From a virus, in IMG/VR virus record IMGVR_UViG_3300032893_000002, positions 1-46,667 of that record: a stretch of 46,667 nt of DNA, one strand, 5' to 3'. Under the pieces are notes generated by a model. That model made no database searches. It was not told the DNA's origin and saw only the letters and a program-made list of their open reading frames with translations. Of the stretch, positions 8,681-46,530 are shown piece by piece. Each line of letters starts with the position of its first letter. Position 1 is the stretch's first letter. The position numbers and the translations under genes were made by a program.

Positions 8681-8681
8681 A

Positions 8682-12351: not shown

Positions 12352-12452
12352 TAAAGAAGTAAGCAGTGGTGGTAGTTGGTTTAACGATATTTTAGTTCTT
12401 GCGACTTGAAACTCGCTCCGCTCGTGAAGATAAAACTTGAAGAGGTAATAAT

Positions 12453-22723: not shown

Positions 22724-22975
22724 ATGGGAATTTGCGTCATCACACATAATCAGGCAAAGAAGTGGGAAGATACAGACGTTAGGCCGAATTGTTCACATCA
22801 TTTTCATATATCTGCAAAACAGGCATATATTGCCGTAGGCGAAGATAATGCGAATTGGTTCGATGGCCCATCTTCAAGAGCAATAGTTTTTCATGATTGC
22901 GTATTAAGATATGAGTGGCAGGCTAGAAAAAGTATAGGGTTTAACGTTTTGCAGATGGTACCAATTAGAAAATGA
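22724..22975 (+). CDS. hypothetical protein (83 aa)
   Basis: ATG ORF whose ATG lies inside a TAGTATAAT motif; stop overlaps terL start. Confidence 0.4.
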   Translation: MGICVITHNQAKKWEDTDVRPNCSHHFHISAKQAYIAVGEDNANWFDGPSSRAIVFHDCVLRYEWQARKSIGFNVLQMVPIRK

Positions 22976-26815: not shown

Positions 26816-26832
26816 TAAAAGGAGATAAAAGA

Positions 26833-27093
26833 ATGTCGACGCCCGCGATGGCAACAGAAGTTTTTATTGCAGAAGCAGTTCCAAACACAGCTGCTTCACA
26901 ACCGCAACTTATGGATGGCAATACTAACTTAGCAAATACGCCGCAAGCAACAGGGTTGATTACGGTACCGCAATCGCCTTCTGGTACTTCGACTACAAAC
27001 ACAGGACGAGCACTAGAAGCAACAGCGACGTATTTAGCATCAAAGTTGAATATTTTGAATGTTGGTACAACACCTCCGCCAGCACACAATTAA
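26833..27093 (+). CDS. hypothetical Thr/Ala/Pro-rich protein (86 aa)
   Basis: AAAGGAGATAAAAGA SD; low-complexity T/A/P-rich sequence. Confidence 0.45.
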   Translation: MSTPAMATEVFIAEAVPNTAASQPQLMDGNTNLANTPQATGLITVPQSPSGTSTTNTGRALEATATYLASKLNILNVGTTPPPAHN

Positions 27094-27112
27094 TTAGAGG
27101 TCTACCCTGTCT

Positions 27113-27868
27113 ATGTCAGAGAATCCGTTAAAGGTACTTCAACCGCGTCATGCTGAATTAAACATGTATGATGTAATGAAAGGTACAATTCAAAGATTTT
27201 TTGCTGTTGTTGCAACAGAGCCAATTACGTATTCAGGCGAGACGATCGAACCTAAACCCTTAATCGTCTCGCCTGATATATTCAGAGGTACAGCATGCCC
27301 AGAGATGTGCGGCGCGTGTTGTGTTCGCGGAACATTAGATTTTCTTCCTGGCGATCCTAGACCAAAAGAAGCTACACAAAGATTTGTAGAAGTAAATGGA
27401 AAGAAAATTGAGATTTGGTCGGATATGCAAGAAGATAACGCCGATAGATGGTGTCGGCATTTGAATTTGAAAAATGGACGATGTGGCATTCATTCCGAAG
27501 CATATTATCCTTGGTTATGTGATTTTGCATTAATCAATGTAAAACATTTTAAGGATAAGTATTGGCTTGGAACTACGAAATTTTCAAGAACATGGAATTT
27601 TAGAAAGATTACAGATACAGACGAAGAATTTAAAGCGCGGAAAGCTGCACATAAGCCCGGTGCGCTATGCAGCATAGAACCTTTTGAGCCAATATCTGAA
27701 CAGACGGTTGCTAATACAAGGAGAAAGCTGAGAGGACTAGAGAAGTGGATTAACCATTTCCAAATTGCGAATCGGATGAAAAGTATTATGGCTTGGGCAA
27801 ATATGGATCCGATTCCTACAAAGCCTTTATATCTAGGAATTAAATCAGAACGAGGAGTTTTAATTTGA
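27113..27868 (+). CDS. CxxCxxCC (YkgJ/FliB-like putative Zn/Fe-chelating domain) protein
   Basis: CPEMCGACC matches the CxxCGxCC signature of the YkgJ/FliB family; additional Cys/His downstream (WCRH, RCGIH). Confidence 0.4.
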   Translation: MSENPLKVLQPRHAELNMYDVMKGTIQRFFAVVATEPITYSGETIEPKPLIVSPDIFRGTACPEMCGACCVRGTLDFLPGDPRPKEATQRFVEVNGKKIEIWSDMQEDNADRWCRHLNLKNGRCGIHSEAYYPWLCDFALINVKHFKDKYWLGTTKFSRTWNFRKITDTDEEFKARKAAHKPGALCSIEPFEPISEQTVANTRRKLRGLEKWINHFQIANRMKSIMAWANMDPIPTKPLYLGIKSERGVLI

Positions 27869-33778: not shown

Positions 33779-34417
33779 ATGAATAAAAGTTGGGTTATTT
33801 ACCAAATTCAAAACGTTGTAAACGGAAAGTACTACATTGGCTATACAGAGAATTTTACTGTTCGATGGGAGTTACATCGTCAAGATGCCAAAAATGGAAA
33901 TACATGCCATTTCTACTGCGCAATCAGAAAGTATGGTGTTGCTGCATTCAAACATCAAATTCTAGCGCAAACTAGGAGCTTAGAAGACGCTAAGCAATTA
34001 GAGAAGTTATGGATAGCTGCATTGCGATCATTTGATCGTTCTATAGGTTATAACATGACCTATGGAGGCGATGGCGTTGTTCATTTACCAGAAACTAAAG
34101 AAAAAATGAGCCGTAAATGCAGAGAAGCTTGGATTAAAAGAAAACAATATAGATCCATAACAGATGGGGTTACGCAGAAACGGATTTTAATTCAGGAAGC
34201 TATTCCAATAGGATGGAGGTATGGAAGAACTCCATTTAAGAAAAAGAATTCTATAACAGCAGTTCAGAAATTGTGCTGGGCTAGGCAAAGACGAGCTGCA
34301 AAACTAGTTTGTTATTTTTGTTATAAATCATTTACGCCAAGTTCAAAAGAGCAAGTATTTTGCTCTAACTCGTGTTCAAATAAAGCGCAAAGAACACTTG
34401 GATACGAATTTAAATAA
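33779..34417 (+). CDS. GIY-YIG homing endonuclease
   Basis: WVIYQIQNVVNGKYYIGYTENFTVRWELH GIY-YIG core; LWIAALRSFDRSIGYNMTYGGDGV nearly identical to the 21821 paralog; C-terminal Cys4 zinc finger. Confidence 0.85.
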   Translation: MNKSWVIYQIQNVVNGKYYIGYTENFTVRWELHRQDAKNGNTCHFYCAIRKYGVAAFKHQILAQTRSLEDAKQLEKLWIAALRSFDRSIGYNMTYGGDGVVHLPETKEKMSRKCREAWIKRKQYRSITDGVTQKRILIQEAIPIGWRYGRTPFKKKNSITAVQKLCWARQRRAAKLVCYFCYKSFTPSSKEQVFCSNSCSNKAQRTLGYEFK

Positions 34418-35254: not shown

Positions 35255-37222
35255 ATGAGAATTAGCGATGAAACATATGTTCAGCGAACTTTGCTAGCAC
35301 GTGCAGCAGTAGCCGAGGCACTCAAAGATCCAAAAATTACAGATCTTTGTAAGCGTGCTAAGGAGCTGAGCCCAACCTCTCAAGACGAAGCTAAGAGATG
35401 GCGAATGGACCATCCACTAGTTAAAGCTGCGACTCGTGCGATTTTAAAGGCGCAGCATGAAGCTTTACAAAAAACAAATCCCCCGGGCGTAGGAACTTGG
35501 GTAGGATTTAACTTCTACGATTTGCGTGGTCCGGCTTATTTTCTATTCCCGATTCTAACGCCTTTCATTCAGATGATTGGTAAGCGTGGAAAAGTTAATG
35601 CTGGCGTCGGCACAGTAGCGCACTGGAAGGCATCTCGCAATCCAAACTCTACATATATTTATGCTGGCGTACAGGAAGGCCAGCGAAACGCAACATCAAC
35701 ACCAAACGAAATCGACTACCTAGCAACCTACAAAGAACTCGGCATGGAAGGTGGAAACACATTCACATCGCAGTGGGCTGGTGAAGGGTATACAGATAAC
35801 CTAGCAGACGAACATTTCCGTAACCTTGCTCGCCTTCGCTTGCAAGAAGAAATGATTACTCTACTCGGTAACTCTGGTACTGCTACTGGTAACCTTGGTT
35901 TCCAACTTGGGCAAGCTCCTAACGTTACTGCTGCTCTTGTAATATCTGACTCATACAATGTCCCAGCATCAGCTGGTTTTGCTGCAAATACAAACGTTTC
36001 AGGCGCAGTAGTCGCACTAACCGGTATGGGCATCAACCCAGGCGGACAAGGTGGATACGGCGCGCCCCCAACAGTAACAACTGGATTAACTCCGACTTCT
36101 ACACGTACAAACGTAGACGGAACAACTCTGGCTGTTAATGGTGGAACTTCGGCAATTTCGAACGTTTCGAATGCGGTTATGACTAACGCAACAGCAAAGT
36201 GGGTGAAATTCACTTGCGCTGCTGTTCAAGGCGCAGTTGCATATGCTTGGTATTTTTATACAGGAGCAACATCAACTGCTGCGGGCACAATTGGTCAGAT
36301 GACTCTAGGTGCAATTACACCAGCTCCATTTTACATTGCTGGTGCCAACCCAACAGGAACTCAGCTTGGCAACGCTGCAGGCTTAAGTACTGACTACAGC
36401 TCACAGTCGACTGACTTTGATGGACTATTAACATATGCATTCAAGAATGGTTATTGGAATGACATGTCTTATGGTTCTTTCACACCAGTAGGCAATGGGC
36501 AGGTCAAGGAAGTTGAAAACGATCTTGAATACCTGTGGAATAACTATCAGGCGCAACCTGATGCAATCTGGGTTTCTGGCGATGTCCGTCAGTCACTAGA
36601 TGCAGCAATTCTATACAGCTCGAGCGGTACTAACAGCTATATCTTCCAGGTATCTCAGGCGCAGCAAGCTACCGGCTTAACCGGTGGTTTCATTGTTACT
36701 GGATACAAGTCGAAATATAGTATTAATCCTGAAGGCGGAGCGGTAATTCCAATTAGAATTCACCCGATGATGCCTCCTGGGACAATGTACTATGACATCA
36801 ATAGCAATCCGTATCCGCATAGCAGAATTCCTGCTGTGAGAGAATTTTTCACACAGCGTGATTACTATGCAATTGAATGGCCGGTCGTAACACGTGAGTG
36901 GACCTATGGTACTTACATCCATGAGGTGTTGGCACACTACCTGCCATGGATTTCAGCAGTCAGAACTGGCATTGGACCATTCGTGGCTCCTTGCTGGATT
37001 GCTGCTGTTGTATTCGACGAGGATTTTGCAACTGGCGTGAAGACAAATATTGTTCGCAACTACTTGCTAAACTGGGAGAAGAACTCTGGTCTTGGCAAGA
37101 TTGTTGTTGGGCTGTATCGTCTACACGGCGAAGCTGTCAGCGAAGTTGTAAAGAAGAGCGCACTAGTAAAGAAAGTATTTACTCGTATCTTCACCGCCGT
37201 CTTAAACAAAGCAGAAAAGTAA
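35255..37222 (+). CDS. putative major capsid protein (655 aa) with N-terminal propeptide-like region
   Basis: Largest structural ORF after portal/protease/scaffold, higher GC and strong SD (AACAGGAGAATATAGCA) consistent with high expression; Gly/Thr/Ala-rich beta composition; positional inference only. Confidence 0.45.
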   Translation: MRISDETYVQRTLLARAAVAEALKDPKITDLCKRAKELSPTSQDEAKRWRMDHPLVKAATRAILKAQHEALQKTNPPGVGTWVGFNFYDLRGPAYFLFPILTPFIQMIGKRGKVNAGVGTVAHWKASRNPNSTYIYAGVQEGQRNATSTPNEIDYLATYKELGMEGGNTFTSQWAGEGYTDNLADEHFRNLARLRLQEEMITLLGNSGTATGNLGFQLGQAPNVTAALVISDSYNVPASAGFAANTNVSGAVVALTGMGINPGGQGGYGAPPTVTTGLTPTSTRTNVDGTTLAVNGGTSAISNVSNAVMTNATAKWVKFTCAAVQGAVAYAWYFYTGATSTAAGTIGQMTLGAITPAPFYIAGANPTGTQLGNAAGLSTDYSSQSTDFDGLLTYAFKNGYWNDMSYGSFTPVGNGQVKEVENDLEYLWNNYQAQPDAIWVSGDVRQSLDAAILYSSSGTNSYIFQVSQAQQATGLTGGFIVTGYKSKYSINPEGGAVIPIRIHPMMPPGTMYYDINSNPYPHSRIPAVREFFTQRDYYAIEWPVVTREWTYGTYIHEVLAHYLPWISAVRTGIGPFVAPCWIAAVVFDEDFATGVKTNIVRNYLLNWEKNSGLGKIVVGLYRLHGEAVSEVVKKSALVKKVFTRIFTAVLNKAEK

Positions 37223-37345: not shown

Positions 37346-37810
37346 ATGTATAGACGCTATGCTACAACTGGCTCAATGGGCGGCGCTGCAATGACTTCGT
37401 CTTACAAAACACTAATTTTGGAGACATCGACCGCTGCAATTAAGCCATATATTTATGACTTCACATTTGGTACTACAGGAACACCTTCTGATTCGGTTGT
37501 CCAGTTAACCTGTACTAGATTTTCTGCGACAGCTGCGACAGTTGGATCAGCGGCTACACCCGTAGCATTAGATGTAACAGATCCTACCTCAACTCTTACT
37601 GCTGTGTATGCTCTAACAGCAGAAGAATCAGCAGGTGTTGTTCTGTTTCAGGTTGGCCTCAACGTTCGCGCTACTTACCGCTGGGTTGCAGCTCCAGGCG
37701 GAGAACTTGTTATGGCTGCATCGACAACAACAAATGGCTCAATTGGTATTCGTGCGCAATCGCCCGCATACACTCTTGATGCTAACGCTACAGTGTATCA
37801 CGCAGAGTAA
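37346..37810 (+). CDS. Thr/Ala/Ser-rich structural protein (possible head decoration protein), 154 aa
   Basis: AGGAGAAATAAAAC SD; beta-rich T/A/S composition; directly follows capsid gene. Confidence 0.35.
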   Translation: MYRRYATTGSMGGAAMTSSYKTLILETSTAAIKPYIYDFTFGTTGTPSDSVVQLTCTRFSATAATVGSAATPVALDVTDPTSTLTAVYALTAEESAGVVLFQVGLNVRATYRWVAAPGGELVMAASTTTNGSIGIRAQSPAYTLDANATVYHAE

Positions 37811-37879
37811 TCAAAAAATTATTTTGTGGGGTGGAGCAATCTGCCCCACAAGTAATTGTATAATTGGGAAAGGAGATTT

Positions 37880-38026
37880 ATGAAAAAAGTTTGTAATGGA
37901 TGGACTTCTAATAGTTCTTCTGTAGCAGGAACGATAGGATCAACTATAGCTACTGATTCGACATGGACAAATTATGGAACTCGTGGATGTAGTACGCAGT
38001 TACATTTTTATTGTCTTCAACAGTAG
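37880..38026 (+). CDS. small ORF (48 aa, below track cutoff) with its own promoter-like motif and strong SD
   Basis: GTAATTGTATAAT (37851-37863) then AAAGGAG-7nt-ATG; translates MKKVCNGWTSNSSSVAGTIGSTIATDSTWTNYGTRGCSTQLHFYCLQQ. Confidence 0.35.
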   Translation: MKKVCNGWTSNSSSVAGTIGSTIATDSTWTNYGTRGCSTQLHFYCLQQ

Positions 38027-38040: not shown

Positions 38041-38721
38041 ATGATTTCTATTCTACTGCCTACAAGAAAGCGGTTTTTACGTCTTCAAAAAATGGTTCTT
38101 TCTATCAAAGAGACAGCGCATACTTACCCGGAGATTGTAGTTTATATAGATGAAGACGATAGAGAAAGCATAGAGAAAGTCGTTGAGTTGGATGTAAAAG
38201 CTATAGTCGGCCCTAGATTAGTATTTTCTGATAACTGGAACAAATGTCATGAAAAGGCGATTGGCGATATTTTAATGATGGGTGCCGACGATCTAATCTT
38301 TAGGACTCCTGGGTGGGATCTTATAGTAGAGGAAGAATTTGCAAAATCAGCAGATAAGATCGTTCTTGTATACGGCGACGATCTTCAAATTCATGTTCCT
38401 TCGCATCCATTTATTCATCAACGATGGGTAGAAGCAGTCGGCTACTTCAGCCCGCCATATTTTCAATATGGCGGTTGCGATGTCTGGTTGCACGATATAG
38501 CTCGTTTTCTTGGCCGAAAACGATTTGCTAACTTTGTTATCGAACATATGCATCCTGAAACAGGGAAAGCTGCAATGGATGCTACATATTATGATCGCGT
38601 AGAAAGACAAAAGAAATATGATGTAATCAAACAATACGGCGAACTCGCATTCAAGAGAATCGAAGATGCCGCAAAACTTATGGATGTTATAGAAAGCAAT
38701 ACGAATAAAGTAATTGTATAA
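38041..38721 (+). CDS. putative glycosyltransferase (GT2-like)
   Basis: N-terminal ISILLPTRKR matches the conserved GT2 first strand (I-x-I-P-T-x-N/K-R); MGADDLIF DxD-like; trimmed from track start 38011. Confidence 0.4.
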   Translation: MISILLPTRKRFLRLQKMVLSIKETAHTYPEIVVYIDEDDRESIEKVVELDVKAIVGPRLVFSDNWNKCHEKAIGDILMMGADDLIFRTPGWDLIVEEEFAKSADKIVLVYGDDLQIHVPSHPFIHQRWVEAVGYFSPPYFQYGGCDVWLHDIARFLGRKRFANFVIEHMHPETGKAAMDATYYDRVERQKKYDVIKQYGELAFKRIEDAAKLMDVIESNTNKVIV

Positions 38722-38908
38722 TTCATTTATGGCGCTTTACTATTGTCAAGCACAAGTTTTAGCAAAGAGCGGAGCTATAAAAGTAGGCATGCATGACACT
38801 GTTAAAGCAGCGCATGAATGCGCAATTCTAAATTTAGCGCTTCGCGATAGGGGTATAGCAGAAGAGGCAGCTATATTATTACATCCAGAATTAAAAGAAG
38901 ATAACTAG
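38714..38908 (+). CDS. hypothetical protein (64 aa)
   Basis: ATG ORF overlapping previous stop. Confidence 0.3.
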   Translation: MYNSFMALYYCQAQVLAKSGAIKVGMHDTVKAAHECAILNLALRDRGIAEEAAILLHPELKEDN

Positions 38909-38922
38909 AAAGGCAACCTGTC

Positions 38923-39882
38923 ATGCCGAAATTTTACTTAGTAACAGGCTCGACCGGGTTTATCGGCCGATCTTTAGTCAGAGCTTTACTTAAGCAAGGA
39001 CATAAGGTTCGTTCGTTCGATAACGACTCGCGCGGAAGTAAAATACTTCTTAATGATGTAAAAGATGATATTGAATTTATAACAGCAGATATTAGAGATC
39101 TTGCTGCAGTTAAAGAAGCAACAAAAGATATCGATTGCGTTTGTCATTTAGCATATATCAATGGCACGCAGACATTTTACGAAAAACCTGTTCAGATTTT
39201 GGATATTGCAACAAAGGGAATGCTTAATGTTCTCGAAGCTTGCATAGAGAATAAAGTTCCTGAACTTGCCCTTGCATCTAGCCCAGAAGCTTATCAGGCA
39301 GCTTCTATAATTCCTACCGATGAAACAGTCGGGCTTAGTGTTCCCGATCCTCTCAATGCGCGCTTTAGTTATGGCGGCGGAAAGATAATTTGTGAACTGC
39401 TCGCGATTAACTACGGACGCGAATATTTTGATAAAGTTACAATCTTTCGGCCACATAGTGTTTATGGCCCAAAAATGGGCAATGCGCACGTAATTCCGCA
39501 GCTCGTTAATCGCATCAAACCTCTTCTTTCCTCTAATCCAGTAGTGAAACTGCCCATCCAAGGTGATGGATCTGAAACTCGATCTTTCTGTTATATAGAT
39601 GATTGTATTCAAGGAATTCTAATTACGATGGATCGAGGAGAACATTTAAATATCTACCATATTGGAAATGAAGAAGAAGTTACAATAGCCAAGCTCGCAG
39701 AAAAGATCGGCGCTGTATTTGGTAAAGTTGTTAGAATAATTCCAGGTCCGTTGCAGCCAGGCAGCACATTGAGGCGTTGTCCTGACATTAGAAAGATTAA
39801 AGCTTTAGGATATAATCCGACGACGAATCTTGATCGTGGATTAAGACTTACAATAGAACAAAGCATTGAGGTGCCTGTCTAG
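38923..39882 (+). CDS. NAD-dependent nucleotide-sugar epimerase/dehydratase (extended SDR family)
   Basis: N-terminal LVTGSTGFIGRSLVRAL (GxxGxxG Rossmann), catalytic YGGGK (YxxxK), overall length and layout of UDP-glucose 4-epimerase / dTDP-sugar reductase family. Confidence 0.8.
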   Translation: MPKFYLVTGSTGFIGRSLVRALLKQGHKVRSFDNDSRGSKILLNDVKDDIEFITADIRDLAAVKEATKDIDCVCHLAYINGTQTFYEKPVQILDIATKGMLNVLEACIENKVPELALASSPEAYQAASIIPTDETVGLSVPDPLNARFSYGGGKIICELLAINYGREYFDKVTIFRPHSVYGPKMGNAHVIPQLVNRIKPLLSSNPVVKLPIQGDGSETRSFCYIDDCIQGILITMDRGEHLNIYHIGNEEEVTIAKLAEKIGAVFGKVVRIIPGPLQPGSTLRRCPDIRKIKALGYNPTTNLDRGLRLTIEQSIEVPV

Positions 39883-41102
39883 TGTTCGGAAAAGTACTCT
39901 ATTGCAGAATGTGCGGGTCGGCACAGCTAAAGTCTTTCCTTAATTTGGGGCTAATGCCTCCTGCAGATCATTTCCTAAAAAGCAAGACAGAGATAGAACA
40001 GAGATTTCCTTTAGAAGTAAGAACATGTGTAGAATGTGGATTGGCGCAGCTAAGCTACGTTGTCGATCCAAAAATACTATACTGTCAAGATTACCCATAC
40101 GATGCGTCTACAGCATTAACCGCACAGAAGCATTGGCAACATTTCGCAGATGTAGTTTGCGCACGAGGTTTAGCAAAGAAGGATGATCTTGTTGTAGACA
40201 TAGGCAGTAATGTCGGCGTATTATTGCAGGCTTTTAAAAATAACGATACCAAAGTATTAGGCGTCGATCCCGCCTCGAATATAGCTAAAATTGCGCAGGC
40301 AAATGGTATCGAAACAATAGATGCTTTCTTCGATATAGAAGTAGCTAATAAAATAGTTCGGAAGTATGGACGAGCAAAAGTTATAACAGGAACTAACGTA
40401 TTTGCACACATTAACGATTTGAACGAATTTATGAAAGCTGTTCAAACTCTTCTGCTAGAAGATGGAACATTTATATTTGAAGTTCCTTATTTTGTTAATC
40501 TAGTGCGCTATATGCAGTATGACACGATTTATCATGAACACTTGTCTTACATTTCTATCATGCCTTTATTAAAATTTTTCAAGAAATTTAATATGGAGAT
40601 TTTTAATGTGGAAGACAAGAATTTTCATGGTGGGTCGATTAGAGTATTTGTAAGGAACAGAACCGGAAAAGATATTCCTTATAGAATAGACGAACTTGTT
40701 CAATTGGAAAAATCTTGTGGTATTTATGACTTCGGCAAGCTGACTAATTTTGCAGCAGATGTAGAGGCAAATAGAACAGCGCTTAGAAAATTAGTTATAG
40801 GTTTAAAGCGAGACGGAAAAAGTATAGCAGTAGTTAGCGCCCCAGCTAAGGGAATGACGCTGTTGAATTTTTGTGGTTTAGATAATTCGATAATTGATTA
40901 TGCTACGGAGAAAGCAAAGTTAAAGATTGGTAAGTATACACCAGGAACAAGAATTCCCGTTGTTCCTGACAGTTGCCTACTAGACAAAAGTCCAGATTAT
41001 GCGTTACTATTAGCTTGGAACTTCGCAGACGAGATAATCAAAAATAATCCAAGATATAGAGGCAGATATATAATTCCTATTCCAAATCCAAGGATAGTAT
41101 AA
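39882..41102 (+). CDS. NDP-hexose C-methyltransferase (Zn-ribbon + class I SAM MTase + C-terminal C-MTase domain)
   Basis: N-terminal CRMCGS...CVECGL zinc-binding domain followed by LGLMPPADHFL as in TylC3/NovU-type sugar C3-methyltransferases; SAM motif VVDIGSNVGVLL; about 400 aa. Confidence 0.65.
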   Translation: MFGKVLYCRMCGSAQLKSFLNLGLMPPADHFLKSKTEIEQRFPLEVRTCVECGLAQLSYVVDPKILYCQDYPYDASTALTAQKHWQHFADVVCARGLAKKDDLVVDIGSNVGVLLQAFKNNDTKVLGVDPASNIAKIAQANGIETIDAFFDIEVANKIVRKYGRAKVITGTNVFAHINDLNEFMKAVQTLLLEDGTFIFEVPYFVNLVRYMQYDTIYHEHLSYISIMPLLKFFKKFNMEIFNVEDKNFHGGSIRVFVRNRTGKDIPYRIDELVQLEKSCGIYDFGKLTNFAADVEANRTALRKLVIGLKRDGKSIAVVSAPAKGMTLLNFCGLDNSIIDYATEKAKLKIGKYTPGTRIPVVPDSCLLDKSPDYALLLAWNFADEIIKNNPRYRGRYIIPIPNPRIV

Positions 41103-41103
41103 A

Positions 41104-41466
41104 ATGGGACAGTATAGAGATGAACGAGGAGTCATTGCAGATCTTATTCCCAATATTATTGGTCAAGGGATAAATTCTGTAACGGCAATCGCATCGTTCA
41201 AAGGAGCAGTGCGCGGAAATCATTTTCACAAAGAAACAGATCAGTGGACATACATAGTTAGCGGAAAGACTCGAGTTGTTAGTATTATCAATGGGCAGCT
41301 TATAGATGCAGTTTACAATGCCAGAGAACTAATAATGCATCCCGCGGGAACGCCGCATGCTTTCGAAGCCATAGAAGATACAGAATGGCTTGTTTTTGCT
41401 AAAGGACCAAGAGCGGGCGATAATTATGAATTAGATACATTCCGGCTAGAAATTCCGCTAATATGA
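41104..41466 (+). CDS. small cupin-fold protein (120 aa; could be a sugar isomerase/epimerase)
   Basis: AVRGNHFHKETDQWTYIVSGK and MHPAGTPHAF form a two-motif cupin metal site; about 120 aa as in WxcM-C/FdtA-type cupins. Confidence 0.45.
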   Translation: MGQYRDERGVIADLIPNIIGQGINSVTAIASFKGAVRGNHFHKETDQWTYIVSGKTRVVSIINGQLIDAVYNARELIMHPAGTPHAFEAIEDTEWLVFAKGPRAGDNYELDTFRLEIPLI

Positions 41467-42197
41467 AAGCGATTAAAAAGACAATCTATACGTTAAACGT
41501 TAATAGCTATTCTGAGAAAATTACTGCTTTAACGTATCCTTTTATTCGAGATTATGCAGAAAAGATAGGCGCGGCCTTTCATATTATTAAAGATAGAAAA
41601 TTTCCTGACTGGCCCATAACATATGAAAAGCTCCAGATTTATGAACTTGGCCAAGAAAATGATTGGTCGATATACGTAGATAGTGACGCACTTATTCATC
41701 CGGATACTATTGACTTTACGACCTTACTAAAGAAAGATACAGTTTGCCATTTTGGTAAAGATTTGGCAGGAAATAGATGGAAGTACGACAACTACTTCTT
41801 ACGTGATGGTAGAAATATTAGTTCATGTAACTGGTTTACAATCTCGTCAGATTGGTGTATAGATCTTTGGAAACCAACTGAGCAAACATTTGGAGAAGTT
41901 TTAGCACAAATTCATCCAGTTTTAGCTGAACAGAAAGCAGGCATTCTTGCTCCGCATCTAGTAGATGACTACGTGTTAAGCAGAAATATTGCAAAGTACG
42001 GATTAAAATTTACTACATGTAAAGATATACTGGATGATGTAGATTGCGGTAATCCAGGGAAAGATAATTACTTTTTTCATGAGTATTTAGTTCCAGAAGA
42101 AAGAAAGGTTAGTTTGATAAAAGAGCGACTCAAGTTATGGGGTCTTGCTCCATGGTATTTTGATATTCCAGAAATAGTAACAAAAGGTGCATTTTAA
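41463..42197 (+). CDS. putative glycosyltransferase-like protein (244 aa)
   Basis: SIYVDSDALIHPD DxD-type motif after hydrophobic strand; weak. Confidence 0.3.
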   Translation: MKAIKKTIYTLNVNSYSEKITALTYPFIRDYAEKIGAAFHIIKDRKFPDWPITYEKLQIYELGQENDWSIYVDSDALIHPDTIDFTTLLKKDTVCHFGKDLAGNRWKYDNYFLRDGRNISSCNWFTISSDWCIDLWKPTEQTFGEVLAQIHPVLAEQKAGILAPHLVDDYVLSRNIAKYGLKFTTCKDILDDVDCGNPGKDNYFFHEYLVPEERKVSLIKERLKLWGLAPWYFDIPEIVTKGAF

Positions 42198-42205
42198 GGA
42201 GACGA

Positions 42206-42856
42206 ATGCTTCTTCCTGCGGAAGATATAGGTAAAAGTTATCTACTTGTCGGCATTCCAGCCTGCGGACGAGCTACAACAGTTCGTTGGTCGATCAATCT
42301 AGCTTCGCAGATTTATCCATTGAGTATGTCTTTCAATTATTTGAAAGTACAAGGCGCCGAAGCTGGCGATGCTAGGAATAGAATAGCTGATTTTGTAAAA
42401 GAAAGTAAAGCAAAGTTATTATGGATGGTCGACGATGATGTTCTTCCGCCACAATACGCAGTACAGAAATTGCTGTACGCAATGGTAGCAAAACCAAAGG
42501 TGTTAGCATGTGCTGGAATAGTTTATACAAAAACTCCAATTCCTGAACCTTTGGTATTTGCACATGATGGCGCTGGAGCATACCGCAATTGGAAGCAAGG
42601 TGAAATTTTCGAGGTGCCGGGCTTTATTAGTACAGGATGCATGTTAGTAAAAGCTGAAGCTTTTGAGAAGTTAGAATATCCATGGTTTAAGACAACTGAC
42701 TACCCGGATAAAATGACAGAAGATGCGTATTTCTGTTTAAAAGCAAGAGATGCGGGATATAAAATTCTTGCGCACGGCGGCGTATTGTGCGGGCATTATG
42801 ATTTTAGAACTAAGAAAGTGATTAAAGCTCCGAAGGAGTTATCGTTAATATCATGA
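42206..42856 (+). CDS. putative GT2-like glycosyltransferase, paralog A (216 aa)
   Basis: WMVDDDVLP (DxD) and TEDAYFCLKARDAGYKIL (ED...GYKI) GT2-like pair; about 30% identical to next ORF. Confidence 0.4.
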   Translation: MLLPAEDIGKSYLLVGIPACGRATTVRWSINLASQIYPLSMSFNYLKVQGAEAGDARNRIADFVKESKAKLLWMVDDDVLPPQYAVQKLLYAMVAKPKVLACAGIVYTKTPIPEPLVFAHDGAGAYRNWKQGEIFEVPGFISTGCMLVKAEAFEKLEYPWFKTTDYPDKMTEDAYFCLKARDAGYKILAHGGVLCGHYDFRTKKVIKAPKELSLIS

Positions 42857-43491
42857 GCGATAAAGTAGGATTCGGCGCAAATAAGTTAATAATTAGCGTT
42901 CCTCCGTGTGAGACTCCGGCAACAGTTGATTGGGCAATCAACCTAGCTACTCAGTATTGGCCATTAGGCATTTGTCGTGAATTTACTTCGCAGGAAGGTC
43001 TAGGCGACGATTTAGATCTTCTTCGCAATCATACTGCGGGATACGCTTTAGCAACAAAAGCAAGATATATTTGGTTTTTATCGGAACGTTGTTTACCTCC
43101 AAATTGGGCAGTTCATCGGTTACTAGAAGCTATGCGTACAGATCCGAAGATTATGATTTGTGCTGGGGTTAGTCGGACAAATACGCCAGATTCTATCGAC
43201 TATAATGAAGAAGTAGCATTATTTAAAGATGAGCAAGGCAATGAGTTCGAAGTTCTGTCACTAAAACGTAATAATTACGTAGGTTTAGAATGTACAATCG
43301 TTCGCGCTGAATTGTTTGATGTTTTGCCCGAGCCTTGGTTTAAATCGAACGATCTTGTTAAATCTAATGCCTTGCTAAGCTATAAAGCGATAGAAGAAGG
43401 ATTTAAAGTTTGTGTACATTCTGGTGTAATGTGTGGTCATGTTGATGAATCTGGCAGAGCGATTTGGCCTAGTGAGGTACTTGTTGCATGA
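42853..43491 (+). CDS. putative GT2-like glycosyltransferase, paralog B (212 aa)
   Basis: Collinear with previous ORF (V..P.C...TV.W.INLA.Q..PL...KI..CAG...T.TP); ATGA overlap. Confidence 0.4.
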   Translation: MSDKVGFGANKLIISVPPCETPATVDWAINLATQYWPLGICREFTSQEGLGDDLDLLRNHTAGYALATKARYIWFLSERCLPPNWAVHRLLEAMRTDPKIMICAGVSRTNTPDSIDYNEEVALFKDEQGNEFEVLSLKRNNYVGLECTIVRAELFDVLPEPWFKSNDLVKSNALLSYKAIEEGFKVCVHSGVMCGHVDESGRAIWPSEVLVA

Positions 43492-44234
43492 GAGATTTAA
43501 CTATTGTAGCTCCCGCATACTACCCAGATTTTCTTAAGTGCGGAATGCTTATTGATTCATGCAAACATTTTAAACTGAATTTGCATTTGTATGGACAAGG
43601 AGAAGAATGGCCTTGGTATTTTAATGCCAAAGTTATTCAACTAGCCAAAGAACTTGAGCAAATTGATTCAGAATATATAATGGTATGCGATGCAGATGAT
43701 GCATTTGTAATGGCATACGAATCTGAAATAATGCATAAATATACAAATATAACAAGTAAAATTCTTGTATCAGCTGATCGTATTGGAAAAGGAGATGAAT
43801 TATTTCCGCAATGCCTATTTCGTGATTTATATCCCCCATCAACAACGCCTTGGCGTTACTGTAACTCAGGCGGATATATAGGCAAGAAAGCAAACATATT
43901 AGATCTTTTACAAACAATGGCAAGTACTGAAGAAGCATCTTTTATTCCAGTATGGAGAAGTAAAGATTGGAGTAACGATCAATTTCGCATGTCTGTTTGT
44001 TTCTTAAATGGATACGACTTGAAGATTGATACAGAATGTAAAGTTTTTCAAACAATGGGGTGTATCGAACCTCACGAATATAAGTGGGGACCTCCAAATG
44101 GAGTTCGTACTGTAACGCAGTATTTTTTAAATACGGTAACGCATTCTTATCCATGCGTTATTCATTTCAATGGCAATGCGCCTGGAATAAAAGAGGCTTA
44201 CGATAGATGCTTCGAGCTGGCAACTACTCAATAA
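43488..44234 (+). CDS. putative glycosyltransferase-like protein (248 aa)
   Basis: YIMVCDADDAF DxD-type motif; ATGA overlap with previous gene. Confidence 0.3.
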   Translation: MRDLTIVAPAYYPDFLKCGMLIDSCKHFKLNLHLYGQGEEWPWYFNAKVIQLAKELEQIDSEYIMVCDADDAFVMAYESEIMHKYTNITSKILVSADRIGKGDELFPQCLFRDLYPPSTTPWRYCNSGGYIGKKANILDLLQTMASTEEASFIPVWRSKDWSNDQFRMSVCFLNGYDLKIDTECKVFQTMGCIEPHEYKWGPPNGVRTVTQYFLNTVTHSYPCVIHFNGNAPGIKEAYDRCFELATTQ

Positions 44235-44470
44235 TTTCTGATCCTGATGGACACAGAGTTGAACGTGATAATTTTACATGTGGGCATTGTGGTAAAATAG
44301 TTTTTGTCAAACCAGGACAACGTGGAGAGGACGTTGGAGGTATGTGTAAACTATGCTACAACCTTATTTGCGGAGAATGTGTTGATTTGCTTGTTTGTGA
44401 ACCATTAGAACGTAAATTAGAAAGAGACGAAAAACGAGAGAGATTTTTACGGCAAGCAGGGTTATTATGA
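44207..44470 (+). CDS. zinc-ribbon protein (87 aa)
   Basis: CGHCG...CKLCYNLICGEC; overlaps previous gene by 28 nt, so the true start may be internal. Confidence 0.35.
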   Translation: MLRAGNYSIISDPDGHRVERDNFTCGHCGKIVFVKPGQRGEDVGGMCKLCYNLICGECVDLLVCEPLERKLERDEKRERFLRQAGLL

Positions 44471-44775
44471 TTTATAATCTATTTCTATATATTGCGCTCG
44501 GCCATTTTGTATTAGCTCAAGGACCACAACATTCGGCAACATTGCAATGGGTTCCTTCTCCTACACAAGGAGTAACTGCTACTTATATCTACAGGGCCAA
44601 ATCTCCGTGTACCAGTTTTGCAAAGAAAGCGCAAGTGAGTAATAATATCACAATGTGGATAGATACAAGTGTGACACAAACAAAAACGTATTGTTACTAT
44701 GTCACAGGACATTGTCCAAAATGTAGTCCACAAGATTCAAATCCTTCAAATAAAGTACAAATTAAGATTCCATAG
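44467..44775 (+). CDS. secreted FN3-like protein, paralog A (102 aa)
   Basis: N-terminal signal-like hydrophobic stretch ending LAQG; ATLQWVPSPTQGVTATYIY...KTYCYYVTGHCPKCSPQDS collinear with next ORF. Confidence 0.45.
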   Translation: MIYNLFLYIALGHFVLAQGPQHSATLQWVPSPTQGVTATYIYRAKSPCTSFAKKAQVSNNITMWIDTSVTQTKTYCYYVTGHCPKCSPQDSNPSNKVQIKIP

Positions 44776-44783
44776 GAGAAAAT

Positions 44784-45137
44784 ATGAAGAAATTTGCTTT
44801 TCTATTCACTTTACTTTTTGCGTCTGCCTGCTTTGCGCAGAATACGCATACTGCAACTTTAACATGGAGCCAGTCGCCATCTTCGGGCGTTACAAGTAAT
44901 AATGTGTACTTTTCTACAACAAAGGGCGGACCTTATACTTCTGTATTTTCATCTGCATCGCCCATCACGACATATACAGTAACAAATTTGGCGCCAGCCA
45001 CAACATACTATTTTGTTGTGACTGCTGTTTGCGCAACGTGTAGTCCACAAGAATCAGCATATTCAAATGAAGCATCTGCAACAACAAAGAACGGACAGCC
45101 GCAATCGCCGTCGAGTTTAACAGTTACTGCTAACTAG
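44784..45137 (+). CDS. secreted fibronectin-type-III-like protein, paralog B (117 aa)
   Basis: Signal peptide MKKFAFLFTLLFASACFAQ; FN3 pattern ATLTWSQSPSSGVTSNNVYFS...TTYTVTNLAPATTYYFVVTAV; shared CxTCSPQES motif. Confidence 0.5.
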   Translation: MKKFAFLFTLLFASACFAQNTHTATLTWSQSPSSGVTSNNVYFSTTKGGPYTSVFSSASPITTYTVTNLAPATTYYFVVTAVCATCSPQESAYSNEASATTKNGQPQSPSSLTVTAN

Positions 45138-45147
45138 TGAGGATTCA

Positions 45148-46530
45148 GTGAGAAACAGTTTATTACTCTTAATGCTTTCTTGTTTTGCTGCTGCACAAGC
45201 TCCTACAACGTATTCCGTTGCAAGAACTGATGTAGCAGTGACACAACTCCCAAACCCTATGCCAAAATGGGGTCCAACAGGGCTAGGGCAGAAGTACTGT
45301 AATCCTGCGTTTAATGGAATATGCATTATCCGCCTAACAGATAGTACATCCTTTTCGAACAAAGGATCTGGTGTATCTGTAGAAGATGGAAAAGAAAATC
45401 CATTTTCGAAAGATAGCAAATTTATAATGGTTTCTTCACCAAACGGTTCATCAAAAATCATTTCGTTTAATCCAAAGAAAGAAACAGTAGGGACTACTCC
45501 AACAGTATTCACAAATGGGCCTGCTGAATTTTCTTATAATACTACAGGCGTTGCATTCCAAAGACAGAATAAAACGCAAATTTACAAACTCTCAACTAAG
45601 AATAATTGGACGACTTATACAAGTGTGCTCGTATACGATTTTAAGAACTGTTTGCCTGCAGGATATAATCCTTCCTGGGTAAGTTCGTGGAATGTATCCA
45701 CATCTGATACTTCGTTTGTATCTATTTACTCAAATAATGGCGGGCAAGGTTCAGGCGGAAATGTTGTAGCTTATAGAAAAGGCATAGGTTGCGCAACATT
45801 AAATACGTTAACAGGACAAGTAACTGATTTTAGCGGAAAGTCTTTGGGAACGTTTGATGATGGTGCTAATCCTTTGCCAGATAGATTCGTTGTTCATGAT
45901 GGAGGAACAGGGAAAAATGCGAATGTAATGAATATTGGTTATTCTGTACAAGATAACAGTTGGTCAGGTAAAGGAACATCGGGATGTAAGGCTGGAAATT
46001 GCGCAGATGATACTCCATATTTTTGGGAAATTGGTACTACGCATTTACGGCCATGTGGGCCATATAAGTGTGGGGGACACGGAGATTCAGGTCAGCAGCA
46101 TTATGCAGATGGCAAAAATTTAATGTTGCATTTGCTACTAAATCCTTCCCAACCGCTTTTAAAACTAGCAAAATTACCATGCTGTGGATATGATTTTCAA
46201 GGTAGTTGGAATAATGCAGATTCTACAGATGAACAACCATTAGGAGGCGTTACATCATTAGTAACAAATGTCCCGGGACCTCCATTCAACGGCCCTTATG
46301 AGGATGAAATTTTTGCTGTAGCTTCTGATGGAAGTAAAACTTGGCGATTTGGCCAGACTTTGAATACCGGAATGTCGCCGTACTATATTTGTCAAAATGC
46401 GCACACTGCATTTAGTTCAGATGGGCATTGGGCACTTTTCTCGTCAGATATGGGCGGAAATGGAGCATTAGGGTACGAAGCAGATGGGGTAACGTCACGC
46501 TGCGATGCATTTCTTATGGAGTTGAAGTAA
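45148..46530 (+). CDS. large secreted protein (460 aa), possible receptor-binding / tail-associated protein
   Basis: Signal peptide MRNSLLLLMLSCFAAAQA; Gly/Ser/Thr/Asn-rich beta composition; no catalytic motif recognised. Confidence 0.45.
   Translation: MRNSLLLLMLSCFAAAQAPTTYSVARTDVAVTQLPNPMPKWGPTGLGQKYCNPAFNGICIIRLTDSTSFSNKGSGVSVEDGKENPFSKDSKFIMVSSPNGSSKIISFNPKKETVGTTPTVFTNGPAEFSYNTTGVAFQRQNKTQIYKLSTKNNWTTYTSVLVYDFKNCLPAGYNPSWVSSWNVSTSDTSFVSIYSNNGGQGSGGNVVAYRKGIGCATLNTLTGQVTDFSGKSLGTFDDGANPLPDRFVVHDGGTGKNANVMNIGYSVQDNSWSGKGTSGCKAGNCADDTPYFWEIGTTHLRPCGPYKCGGHGDSGQQHYADGKNLMLHLLLNPSQPLLKLAKLPCCGYDFQGSWNNADSTDEQPLGGVTSLVTNVPGPPFNGPYEDEIFAVASDGSKTWRFGQTLNTGMSPYYICQNAHTAFSSDGHWALFSSDMGGNGALGYEADGVTSRCDAFLMELK

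Follow-up and report, generated by a model that had tools for sequence, protein, structure and literature searches.

Among the closest described counterparts of the locus analysed here are the glycosylation systems of mycobacteriophages (Che8, Corndog/cluster O and Myrna; Freeman et al. 2023, via PMC11600133 and PMC12619734). According to the summaries in these two articles, the enzymes decorate subunits of the capsid and the tail tube, and in cluster O phages a sugar O-methyltransferase and three glycosyltransferases (GTs) act on proteins of the capsid and the tail tube (PMC11600133, which cites Freeman 2023). As far as these summaries go, glycosylation has been demonstrated for mycobacteriophages, whereas for the present locus it is deduced from the genes. 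Methylations of giant-virus glycans are O-methylations, and the review PMC9614988 does not contain a 'C-methyl' sugar. In the literature searched, no description of a sugar C-methyltransferase (C-MT) in any virus was found.

The window, i.e. the whole stretch of 46,667 nucleotides analysed (IMG/VR record IMGVR_UViG_3300032893_000002), originates from a large, uncultured phage and harbors a cassette of sugar-tailoring and GT genes directly 3' of the capsid gene (positions 38041–44234; all features described below are on the + strand). With a probability of about 0.5, this cassette represents a glycan-building unit, which is expressed together with the head genes and decorates virion proteins.

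Gene order and surroundings of the cassette

The window displays a phage head module with terS, an intein-bearing terL, a portal gene, a protease-like gene and the gene of a 655-aa major capsid protein homologue (35255–37222), which bears out the earlier note in placing the cassette inside the head-morphogenesis operon. The capsid homologue matches the 'major capsid protein' of Arthrobacter phage Mufasa8 and the capsid-position gene of Brevundimonas phages in tblastn searches, as well as phrog_13692 (3e-63), and has 25 relatives in IMG/VR. It is always directly followed by the gene for p154 (37346–37810), a Ser/Thr-rich (25%) protein of 154 residues with no match in Pfam, PHROG or PDB, which is 73–88% identical in three related contigs (L039, L040 and L041) and better conserved than the capsid protein itself. 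The cassette is situated between this pair and the downstream genes. In front of it lies the remnant of a DUF1554 gene (37856–38026) encoding the C-terminal 44 residues only, with 52% identity (E 3e-15) to the end of a 210-aa DUF1554 protein, which in the relative L015 is encoded between p154 and the first GT (GT1).

The cassette is composed of eight tightly spaced genes and one small ORF of 59 codons (38729–38908), which was called on the ENA twin contig and has no homologue in L039–L041 and no Pfam match. The ORFs reported previously were all recovered at their positions and on the + strand, and an independent gene caller made identical calls on the near-identical ENA contig, including the ATG start of 38041 and the GTG start of 39882. 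The junctions measure −1 nt between the extended SDR and the C-MT, +1 nt between C-MT and cupin, −4 nt between the cupin and GT 41463, +8 nt between 41463 and 42206, and −4 nt each between 42206 and 42853 and between 42853 and 43488, which in turn overlaps the zinc-ribbon ORF 44207 by 28 nt (−28 nt). It follows from these spacings (−28 to +8 nt) that the core of the cassette is translationally coupled, as had been proposed; GT1 (38041) is preceded by a gap of 230 nt on its 5' side. The double CxxC zinc-ribbon protein (44207–44470, 87 aa) closes the cassette and is 66–79% identical at the same position in L039 and L041.

Between terL and the portal gene, a two-domain GT-like protein of 550 residues is encoded (27865–29517). 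It shows sub-threshold matches to GT2 and Glyco_trans_2_3 and is conserved across the lineage, with homologues in 13 relatives, mostly inside the post-capsid island, while its C-terminal half has homologues in many large phages, one of them annotated as glycosyltransferase. The second GT block suspected next to terL is weakly supported, by the sub-threshold GT2 matches of this gene; for the window ORF 26123 no match was obtained.

At least three further, diverged contigs have the same block at the same site (L039, L040 and L041; 48–88% protein identity), and the retention of the block in place in independent contigs indicates more than chance. Brevundimonas relatives that lack GTs have connector and tail genes directly behind the capsid gene. 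More distant relatives have other glycan genes at this site, namely FkbM and MT24 methyltransferases, GT2s, ATP-grasp and UDP-glucose dehydrogenase (L020), pyruvyl transferase, deacetylase, GT-D, GT2 and UDP-glucose dehydrogenase (L029), or GT1 only (L015). Across the lineage, the region behind the capsid gene forms a glycan island that is polymorphic, so that relatives would be expected to show differing surface glycans. In unrelated SU10-like podophages, the capsid gene (phrog_1357) is directly followed, in this order, by genes for a dehydratase, a nucleotidyltransferase, a C-MT, a cupin, a DegT aminotransferase, GTs and the adaptor, which is a case of convergence. The earlier view that such an arrangement is not described holds for the literature searched, but the arrangement is not unique, since it recurs in the relatives and convergently in these podophages. 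Sugar C-MTs are rare in phages (8 of 50,697 GenBank phage records) and were found in about 400 IMG/VR stretches.

Sugar-tailoring enzymes and glycosyltransferases

The product of 39882 (39882–41102, GTG start, 406 aa) is an NDP-sugar C-methyltransferase of full length, combining a zinc ribbon, a SAM domain and a Methyltransf_14 domain (Pfam: Methyltransf_13 2e-18, Methyltransf_23 9e-14, Methyltransf_14 4e-45). The sugar C-MT C-domain, which the earlier note had named as its own test, is present within this complete architecture. Among PDB entries, MtmC matches with 1.7e-89 (40% identity over 401 residues), and KijD1 and TcaB9 with e-61 to e-66. The zinc and catalytic residues, comprising Cys8, Cys11, Cys49, Cys52, the DIGSNVG motif, His176, Tyr217, Glu219 and His220, are conserved in 39882 and its orthologues, and the enzyme is 61% identical in other contigs with the same block.

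Coupled to the C-MT is the gene of an extended, NAD-dependent SDR of the NDP-sugar dehydratase/decarboxylase type (38923–39882; Pfam Epimerase 3e-45, GDP_Man_Dehyd 8e-33), which is 66–73% conserved in relatives. Its best NCBIfam matches, a LegB-type 4,6-dehydratase (6e-41) and dTDP-glucose 4,6-dehydratase (4e-30), are all below cut-off, and no curated family cut-off is reached. With UXS (6e-26), the Ser-x-Glu, YxxxK and Arg residues can be aligned, and UDP-glucuronate decarboxylase matches as well as the 4,6-dehydratases do. By sequence, the SDR probably generates a 4-keto sugar. Since it is equally UXS-like and 4,6-dehydratase-like, a C-methyl pentose is also possible as product, and the deoxyhexose formerly suggested is one candidate beside it. 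Elsewhere, a Gmd-like 4,6-dehydratase takes this slot (31 of 91 further C-MT loci of viruses).

The third tailoring enzyme is a small NDP-sugar cupin (41104–41466, 120 aa; Cupin_1/Cupin_2) with the invariant motifs DxRGxIxD and RGNHxH and an invariant His85. Its AF2 model (pLDDT 92.9) is most similar to the cupin domain of CapF (TM 0.77) among PDB entries, and FdtA and FdtD also match, suggesting an epimerase or keto-isomerase acting on a 4-keto sugar. Of 91 viral loci, 36 have a cupin gene beside that of the C-MT, as does an O-antigen locus of Desulfurivibrio.

The GT-like ORFs are of GT-A type according to Pfam, PHROG and AF2/Foldseek, in agreement with the four to five GT-A/GT2-like transferases predicted. 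The set probably consists of four active GT-A enzymes and one pseudo-GT, 42853, which lacks the metal motif. GT1 (38041–38721, 226 aa) matches the glycosyltransferase family phrog_14945 (2e-31), with a sub-threshold match to Pfam GT2; homologues are located 3' of the capsid gene in many relatives, with one to three paralogues in L039–L041. The second transferase (41463–42197, 244 aa) gave no Pfam match and belongs to a family that has no Pfam model. Its AF2 model (pLDDT 87.8) displays a GT-A fold, for which Foldseek returned the capsid-glycosylating GT A64R of PBCV-1 as top PDB match, followed by GT6 enzymes, and viral GT34-like proteins in BFVD. The motif D73-x-D75 is invariant, and one of the more than 1,100 homologues lies among tail/tail-fibre-like genes of another phage. 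The third, probable GT-A transferase (42206–42856, 216 aa) has only sub-threshold matches to Glyco_trans_2_3 and GT2 besides phrog_1574 (2e-10), shows a conserved VDDDV (DDD) motif and is 71–72% identical in relatives. Its paralogue 42853 (42853–43491, 212 aa; 34% identity, E 7e-41) carries SER or REF in place of DDD in all three orthologues, and is nevertheless kept at 60–66% identity in relatives; it is probably a non-catalytic GT-like partner. The fifth protein (43488–44234, 248 aa) is of the PLOD type (PF25342 GT_PLOD, 2e-20, 73 bits compared to a cut-off of 27) and 65–67% identical in relatives. The PLOD-type GTs known to date use proteins as substrates. As the identities of the SDR, C-MT, cupin and GT-like ORFs hold in profile, PDB and AF2 comparisons, the enzymology formerly proposed is supported.

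Proposed pathway and candidate acceptors

Gene identities and folds are observed, as are the catalytic motifs, the synteny and the polymorphism of the island; from these we infer the pathway that follows, including its substrate, the sequence of its steps, the reduction and the acceptor. The SDR would oxidise a host nucleotide sugar at C4 and then dehydrate (4,6-dehydratase route) or decarboxylate it (UXS/ArnA route), giving an NDP-4-keto sugar. With SAM as cosubstrate, the C-MT would methylate the carbon beside the keto group, resulting in a branched-chain sugar, which the CapF/FdtA-like cupin could epimerise or isomerise. Candidates for the keto reduction are the NADH retained by the SDR, a further activity of the C-MT such as MtmC has, or a reductase of the host; the cassette contains no dedicated 4-ketoreductase, which counts against this explanation. 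Finally, the GT-As 38041, 41463, 42206 and 43488 together with the non-catalytic 42853 would assemble a short glycan containing the branched sugar in the cytoplasm. Among virion proteins, DNA and envelope or secreted molecules, virion proteins are the best guess for the acceptor, at about even odds, with the 655-aa capsid protein and/or p154 (as acceptor or decoration protein) as the likeliest candidates.

A possible yet doubtful alternative is a glycoconjugate of the host envelope or a secreted one. The rare sugar and oligosaccharide would then be built on a lipid carrier and flipped by the host, which would attach it to LPS, capsule or exported proteins, e.g. the co-encoded FN3 proteins, and the altered surface of the infected cell could cause superinfection exclusion or reduce the loss of progeny on debris. 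Two such FN3 proteins, which are small, rich in Ser/Thr and equipped with Sec-type signal peptides, are encoded beside the cassette (44467–45137; fn3 2e-7), and homologues lie inside it in L039; cassette and FN3 proteins travel together, which hints at an envelope-directed role. Moreover, SDR, cupin and GT clusters of cyanophages and jumbo phages were published as O-antigen/capsule modification (PMC7824862; PMC12801897), the nearest relatives of the C-MT are bacterial (53–59% identity), one of them in a Wzx-containing O-antigen locus with the same cupin, and in the isolated cyanophage DSL-LC02 (OR032571) a C-MT gene flanked by Gmd and GDP-fucose synthase, in a cluster with eight GTs, is located away from any annotated capsid gene. 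However, the cassette encodes neither a flippase nor a polymerase, nor an initiating phosphoglycosyltransferase, nor a membrane protein of the Gtr type or any other, and none of its products has a TM-like segment. Its position in a late head operon, kept beside the capsid gene across lineages, is unexpected for a host-surface moron, and the core head genes have the same GC3, the composition of the cassette being fully phage-like.

Hypermodification of DNA is a rival of similarly low probability. By analogy to phage clusters of the C5-MT/TET/GT or ThyS/GT type, the GTs would place the tailored sugar or a short chain on a hydroxymethylated base and thereby block host nucleases. Pyle et al. (bioRxiv 10.1101/2023.12.21.572611) described phage GT-As that build mono- to trisaccharides on 5hmC; several of these strictly require an SDR epimerase as partner. 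The top PDB match of these GT-As is A64R, and structural genes lie near some of the clusters. An A64R-like fold can therefore not separate the acceptors. The gene position of the cassette is circumstantial; late-expressed DNA modifiers such as Mu mom exist. GT1 homologues of Streptomyces BE-cluster phages are found in the replication module (polymerase, dUTPase, dNMP-kinase) beside a nucleotidyltransferase, and in the viral contig L011 a pair of GT2 and C-MT lies between C5 DNA methylase plus primase and terL. Yet the island is associated in two unrelated lineages with the capsid gene and not with replication genes, the pyruvyl transferase, polysaccharide deacetylase and UDP-glucose dehydrogenase of relatives are typical of glycan building, and no C5 DNA methylase, TET/JBP or thymidylate-synthase-like gene was detected among the window ORFs scanned (46.7 of ~180 kb).

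That the genes yield a glycosylated small molecule in free form or act as a nucleotide-sugar sink in a metabolic takeover, or that the cassette is a decaying passenger now without function, as the best-known role of this C-MT family in antibiotic deoxysugar pathways (MtmC, TcaB9, KijD1), the DxD-less paralogue and the DUF1554 remnant might suggest, is highly improbable, given that aglycone-forming genes are absent, catalytic motifs are all intact, identity across contigs is 48–73%, the genes are translationally coupled and the conservation of the DxD-less paralogue argues for function instead of decay.

Comparison with known systems

Regarded as a unit decorating virion proteins, the cassette can be compared with five groups of systems. 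Cyanophage and jumbo-phage clusters (P-SSM2 type; PMC7824862) likewise contain SDR, cupin and multiple GTs and are polymorphic between relatives, but are not located beside the capsid gene and are read as host-surface modification. The C-MT homologue of DSL-LC02 shares 28% identity with 39882 and differs in two active-site residues (H176 to D and Y217 to C).

In DNA hypermodification clusters (C5-MT/5mYOX or ThyS plus GT, with or without epimerase; 10.1101/2023.12.21.572611), GT-As are also paired with a sugar-supplying SDR, and multiple GTs, short glycans and sometimes nearby structural genes are common to both. In contrast, the capsid gene is the anchor of the present island, and the 46.7 kb yielded neither a base-hydroxymethylating nor a C5-methylating enzyme.

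Giant viruses (PBCV-1 A64R; UDP-Rha and UDP-viosamine clusters of Mimivirus) resemble the cassette in using their own nucleotide-sugar tailoring and GT-A enzymes for the particle; the tailoring enzymes include SDR dehydratases, epimerases and methyltransferases, and the clusters are clade-specific (PMC9614988). Unlike the cassette, these belong to viruses of eukaryotic hosts with a different capsid lineage, and are not part of a head operon (PMC9614988).

The bacterial TylC3, TcaB9, KijD1 and MtmC pathways and the predicted virenose pathway of Coxiella (PMC3539893) share the C-MT family, its architecture and active-site residues, and the logic leading from a 4-keto nucleotide sugar via C-methylation, an epimerase and reduction to a GT. 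Here, however, the enzymes are phage-encoded inside a morphogenesis operon, the cupin is small and CapF/FdtA-like instead of a classical RmlC-type epimerase, and the SDR is nearer to UXS or LegB than to RmlB or Gmd and is not accompanied by a dedicated 4-ketoreductase.

With the mycobacteriophage systems, as portrayed in the two summarizing articles, the cassette has in common tandem phage GTs, in the case of cluster O also a sugar methyltransferase, and an accessory nature, being variable between related phages. Sequence kinship was not found, as tblastn with the C-MT and GT1 yielded no Mycobacterium phage matches. Within the same accounts, mycobacteriophages combine an O-methyltransferase with host nucleotide sugars, whereas SDR, C-MT and cupin would here provide a new branched nucleotide sugar. 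If true, methyl-branched sugars would be a new sugar chemistry within the glycosylation of phage particles.

Head operon and position of the cassette

The window comes from a large phage genome: its proteins are on record from a 180,030-bp JGI contig, and a near-identical copy of it was assembled independently in two ENA samples. All genes from about 9 kb onward lie on the plus strand. Shine-Dalgarno-like sequences precede several of the window's genes, and no tRNAs were found in the window. The left arm (1–8900) lies on the minus strand and codes for small proteins without matches; its GC content is higher (0.43–0.53) and its AT skew strongly negative (to -0.32). The divergent junction at 7750–9010 is poor in long ORFs.

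Along the plus strand, an RNA ligase and other early/middle genes come first and are followed by the small terminase, a free-standing GIY-YIG endonuclease gene (21821–22486) and a 978-aa large terminase (22972–25908), which carries an intein with a LAGLIDADG domain. Next come genes for a 550-aa glycosyltransferase (GT)-like protein, the portal (PF04860) and a protease-like product, then the second GIY-YIG gene (33779–34417), and after it the genes for a 243-aa protein and the 655-aa capsid homologue (35255–37222). With one intein and two GIY-YIG genes, the packaging/head module is heavily colonised by selfish elements. Within 26123–27868, ORF 26123 (230 aa) has the motif LDIDC, a possible DxD; ORF 26833 encodes an 86-aa T/A/P-rich peptide, and ORF 27113 a CxxCxxCC domain. 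Neither ORF 26123 nor ORF 26833 has a family or PDB match.

Matches to the 655-aa protein are the product annotated as major capsid protein in Arthrobacter phage Mufasa8 and the capsid-position gene of Brevundimonas phages, which show the order terL, portal, X, capsid gene, small gene, head-tail connector. By capsid the Brevundimonas phages are the closest isolates, at 32%, and there is no close isolate; in a genome collection the protein matched one MAG fragment and nothing else. The C-terminal ~75 residues (~580–655; 36992–37222) are matched in closer relatives only, distant homologues stopping near residue 579, and are predicted to be amphipathic and not Ser/Thr-rich. PDB sequence searches with the capsid protein, the Ser/Thr-rich 154-aa protein encoded directly after it (p154, 37346–37810), the 550-aa GT-like protein and ORF 26123 returned nothing usable.

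The cassette starts 800 nt past the capsid gene. The earlier note had described in 38041–44234 a series of transferase genes together with a nucleotide-sugar epimerase/dehydratase, a sugar C-methyltransferase and a small cupin, and all of these ORFs are present as described. The core genes are closely packed, with junctions of -1, +1, -4, +8, -4 and -4 nt, and the two genes after the core follow at -28 and -4 nt. Upstream of the first transferase gene (GT1, 38041) there is a gap of 230 nt. It contains a 56-aa ORF (37856–38026) left over from the end of a DUF1554 gene: 44 of its residues align at 52% identity (E 3e-15) with the C-terminus of the 210-aa protein that is intact at the same position in the relative L015. 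With regard to a separate transcription unit, promoter- and terminator-like matches are no commoner than in shuffled sequences, and the gap between p154 and GT1 has none. The GC3 of the cassette (0.25–0.32) equals that of the core head genes (0.26–0.38); therefore this allele is not a recent arrival, and recent horizontal transfer was rejected on composition.

At its 3' end, the last transferase gene (43488) is overlapped by 28 nt by the gene for an 87-aa zinc-ribbon protein with two CxxC pairs (44207–44470). This protein has no family match and is 66–79% conserved at the same position in relatives. Each of the three successive proteins that follow (44467–46530) starts with a Sec-type signal peptide; two are small Ser/Thr-rich FN3 proteins, and the third, of 460 aa, has no family match. 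Two signal-peptide FN3-like proteins are also found inside the cassette of the relative L039, between cupin and GT1 (11603–12396). Exported proteins in a head operon are unexpected.

Predicted enzymes of the sugar pathway

The strongest call in the cassette is the protein encoded from 39882 (C-MT), a predicted NDP-sugar C-methyltransferase of the TylC3/TcaB9/KijD1/MtmC type. All three Pfam domains are above threshold: the zinc ribbon PF08421 (Methyltransf_13, 2e-18, residues 8–67), the SAM domain (Methyltransf_23, 9e-14, residues 99–240) with the loop DIGSNVG at residues 106–112, and the C-terminal domain (Methyltransf_14, 4e-45, residues 248–401, full profile), on which the earlier note had staked the assignment. 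The zinc ribbon depends on a GTG start at 39882, which is also the start called in the ENA copy; its Cys8, 11, 49 and 52 align with those of MtmC and KijD1 and are invariant across nine viral and bacterial homologues. End-to-end alignments were obtained with MtmC (1.7e-89, 40% identity over 401 residues), KijD1 (8e-66) and TcaB9 (3e-61). The motifs FAH(176)I and Y(217)-H-E(219)-H(220) are the same as in MtmC and are kept in the orthologues; residues of the His176/Tyr217/Glu219/His220 type are presumably catalytic, in line with reported mutagenesis of TcaB9. MtmC, the closest solved relative, has a reported second ketoreductase activity, which is not to be read across to the phage protein.

The gene at 38923 encodes a bona fide extended SDR (Epimerase, 3e-45, Pfam) with a NAD-type dinucleotide site and the motifs GSTGFIG at 9, FDND at 32, S120-P-E122 and Y150-GGG-K154. 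In the alignment with human UXS, the UDP-glucuronate decarboxylase, the catalytic Ser/Thr, Glu, Tyr and Lys and the C-terminal Arg all correspond. The best NCBIfam scores are those for LegB (TIGR04180, 140 bits, cut-off 475) and RmlB (TIGR01181, 105 bits, cut-off 365), and since all 70 NCBIfam matches fall short of the curated equivalog cut-offs, the protein is called a predicted 4-keto-forming dehydratase or decarboxylase without a set substrate.

The small cupin (41104) was modelled with AF2 at a pLDDT of 92.9. The closest PDB structure is the cupin domain of CapF (TM 0.77, 23–24% identity), and FdtA and FdtD were matched as well. In CapF, a keto-sugar epimerase/reductase, the cupin domain makes up the C3-epimerase half, and FdtA and FdtD are keto-isomerases. 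Asp6, Arg8, Gly9, Arg37, His40, His42 and His85 are invariant among 24 homologues, giving the patterns DxRGxIxD and RGNHxH. By sequence the protein scores highest with metal cupins of the oxalate decarboxylase type (2e-15) and reaches 0.066 with the Pfam FdtA model. However, the metal-motif Glu varies among the homologues while the motifs typical of sugar cupins are invariant, and by structure CapF matches best, making a metal-dependent, oxalate decarboxylase-like enzyme less likely. Fold, motifs and gene neighbourhood point to a predicted NDP-keto-sugar cupin of the RmlC/FdtA/CapF type.

Following the known logic of the C-MT family, the SDR would supply a 4-keto nucleotide sugar and C-MT would methylate the adjacent carbon. 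Gene order supports this chemistry: the SDR gene fills the slot that a dehydratase holds in other viral C-MT loci and overlaps the C-MT gene by 1 nt. No reductase or aminotransferase is present in the cassette.

The GT-A identity proposed in the earlier note for the transferase-like ORFs, taken as the fold together with a DxD metal motif, holds for 38041, 41463 and 43488 and, weakly, for 42206, but not for 42853, in which the DxD is lost. GT1 belongs to a phage GT family (phrog, 2e-31), and the protein from 43488 has a PLOD-type GT domain (GT_PLOD, 2e-20, Pfam). A collagen-like acceptor for the latter was rejected, as no GXY run of five or more repeats occurs in any frame of the window. No Pfam model matches the protein from 41463, a member of a very large and unusually conserved family with over 1,100 proteins at 55–60% identity (homologues P0122–P0240 among them). 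Its AF2 model (pLDDT 87.8) has a GT-A fold with an invariant D73xD75 motif. In Foldseek searches the top PDB match is PBCV-1 A64R, and viral GT34-like proteins head the BFVD matches; several family members are fused to a Methyltransf_24 domain. The protein from 42206 shows weak GT2 matches and a DDD motif. Its paralogue from 42853 (E 7e-41) has SER or REF in place of DDD in all three orthologues and is for this reason probably non-catalytic. In spite of the DxD loss it is 60–66% conserved, and it may act as a non-catalytic partner of the neighbouring GT.

A variable island after the capsid gene

Look-ups with C-MT homologues led to three further contigs (L039–L041), one of 164 kb from a forest-soil assembly and two from Logan. 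They share the order portal ... capsid, p154, a small ORF, SDR, C-MT, cupin, GT-type genes, the PLOD-type GT and the zinc-ribbon protein. Identity to the window is 74–76% for the capsid protein, 73–88% for p154, 66–73% for the SDR, 61% for C-MT, 48–55% for the cupin and 60–72% for the transferases from 42206, 42853 and 43488. Each contig has one to three GT1 paralogues, and the 41463 transferase occurs in one of the three. Downstream of the cassette in L039 the genes have no PHROG matches, and their identity as tail genes is presumed.

IMG/VR contributed 25 further capsid relatives (41–81% identity, contigs up to 176 kb), in which SDR, C-MT and cupin are absent within 10 kb. The post-capsid site of L020 holds a GT1-like gene, two methyltransferases (MT24, FkbM), two GT2s, an ATP-grasp protein and a UDP-glucose dehydrogenase, and that of L029 a GT1-like gene, a pyruvyl transferase, a polysaccharide deacetylase, a GT-D-like protein, a GT2 and a UDP-glucose dehydrogenase. 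L015 has DUF1554 and GT1 only, and L018 has no glycan genes after the capsid gene and the 550-aa GT-like gene upstream. What recurs is GT1 and the 550-aa GT-like protein. The presence of other glycan gene sets at the same site makes the post-capsid position a lineage-wide variable glycan island, of which the window holds one allele. The environmental phages with this island are large (about 125–180 kb) and form a widespread lineage.

Among 50,697 GenBank phage records, eight encode a C-MT homologue; they comprise metagenome assemblies of huge phages, three gut fragments and Synechococcus phage DSL-LC02. In the latter the protein is annotated simply as a methyltransferase, and its gene is flanked by those for GDP-mannose 4,6-dehydratase and GDP-fucose synthase, with eight GTs following. 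In IMG/VR, a profile-guided scan detected a C-MT relative encoded in about 400 stretches. Of 91 viral loci compared, 36 have a cupin next to C-MT, 31 carry a Gmd-like dehydratase, 25 a DegT aminotransferase and 24 a GFS-like reductase. In at least 12 of the loci the phage has a capsid gene of the SU10 type 3–6 kb upstream. In the SU10-like podophage contig L006 (2939–15268), the SU10 portal and major head protein (phrog_1357, 8e-53) are followed by a 4,6-dehydratase, an unknown protein, a nucleotidyltransferase, C-MT, a cupin, DegT, two GTs and the SU10 adaptor. A sugar block between major head and adaptor genes is likewise found in L001, L002, L054–L060, L062 and L063. This gene content predicts a C-methyl amino sugar pathway in the head module of SU10-like podophages.

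The window C-MT is 53–59% identical to bacterial proteins (Bradyrhizobium, Betaproteobacteria, Desulfurivibrio), as against 44% to the SU10-group enzymes. Being nearer to the bacterial proteins, it was acquired separately from that of the SU10 group. The O-antigen locus of Desulfurivibrio has the order Wzx, C-MT, small cupin, DegT, which marks the pair of C-MT and cupin as an ancestral bacterial module.

Acceptor and relation to known systems

The favoured acceptor of the tailored sugar is the virion's own proteins, at about even odds and on circumstantial grounds. Two unrelated lineages keep the island tied to the capsid gene, the cassette breaks an otherwise standard head-to-connector order, and all its enzymes are soluble. 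Moreover, the PLOD-type GTs of known function use proteins as acceptors, and one homologue of the 41463 transferase sits amid tail/fibre-like genes of another phage, with tape-measure/baseplate genes on one side and two Laminin_G proteins of ~1,700 aa on the other. Precedent is given by cluster O mycobacteriophages, in which, according to PMC11600133 (citing Freeman 2023), an O-methyltransferase and three GTs act on capsid and tail tube.

Envelope or secreted glycoconjugates are a rival, less likely product of the cassette. Sugar clusters of cyanophages have been read in this way (PMC12801897, PMC7824862), and Ser/Thr-rich FN3 proteins with Sec signal peptides lie beside the cassette here and inside it in L039. 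However, the cassette encodes no flippase, polymerase, bactoprenol GT or initiating transferase family (Pfam), and none of its proteins has a TM-like segment, no 19-residue stretch exceeding a mean hydropathy of 1.5. Transfer of the sugar onto phage DNA is a rival of about the same likelihood. Pairs of GT-A and SDR enzymes make glycans on 5hmC, with the same A64R top match and some clusters near structural genes (Pyle et al., bioRxiv 10.1101/2023.12.21.572611), and GT1 homologues of Streptomyces phages are located in the replication module. In a third viral lineage (L011, 3534–13558), a GT2 and C-MT pair lies directly upstream of terL, with a C5 cytosine DNA methylase and a primase/helicase within a few kb, and there DNA is a plausible target. 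Among the 40 plus-strand ORFs of at least 100 aa scanned in the window, Pfam detects no C5-cytosine methyltransferase, 5mYOX/TET or ThyS-like hydroxymethylase; another ~133 kb of the genome lie beyond the window.

With virion proteins as the preferred acceptor, the broader reading is that two unrelated groups, environmental phages of ~125–180 kb and SU10-like podophages, carry directly after the capsid gene a 'virion serotype' island that is polymorphic in the manner of O-antigen loci, and that they cover their capsids with rare nucleotide sugars of their own making. Among these would be a C-methyl branched sugar, for which there is no report from any virus. To this reading we tentatively assign a probability of roughly 0.4. 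The observation at the gene level is solid, and wider than the earlier note saw.

To our knowledge, phage virion glycosylation has been shown for a few mycobacteriophages only, with simple transferase sets, and the only counterparts that make rare sugars for their own surface are giant viruses of eukaryotes. In full-text searches, with most subscription journals outside them, no publication connected a sugar C-methyltransferase with a phage or virus; the term 'C-methyl' is absent from a giant-virus glycan review of 290,000 characters (PMC9614988). Judged by gene content, four elements appear to be new: a C-methyl branched-sugar pathway in a virus, the siting of a branched-sugar pathway in the head operon, the serotype-like polymorphism of the post-capsid site and the convergent arrangement in SU10-like phages.

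If the cassette decorates the capsid, phages would make bacterial-type rare sugars, here a branched C-methyl sugar, for their own surface; the site beside the capsid gene, for which one lineage shows at least four different gene sets, would act as a serotype locus, and the same solution would have arisen independently in an unrelated podophage group. A true 'virion serotype' island would imply diversifying selection on particle surface glycans in soil and water, far from mammalian immunity. Capsid decoration would be relevant to phage stability, adsorption and evasion of capsid-recognising defences, to predators of phages and to the immunogenicity of therapeutic phages. For glyco-engineering, the locus offers compact new enzymes, namely C-MT together with the small cupin conserved as its partner, and the GT-A enzymes of a family that has >1,100 members and no Pfam model.

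Functionally, the closest known systems are the virion glycosylation of mycobacteriophages and the capsid/fibril glycosylation of giant viruses with virus-encoded sugar pathways. No homology of C-MT or GT1 to the mycobacteriophage systems (Che8, Corndog, Myrna) was found, tblastn searches of 50,697 phage records with these two proteins having returned zero Mycobacterium phages; judging from these searches, the resemblance would be one of function, not of descent. Enzymatically, the cassette is closest to the branched-sugar pathways of bacteria.
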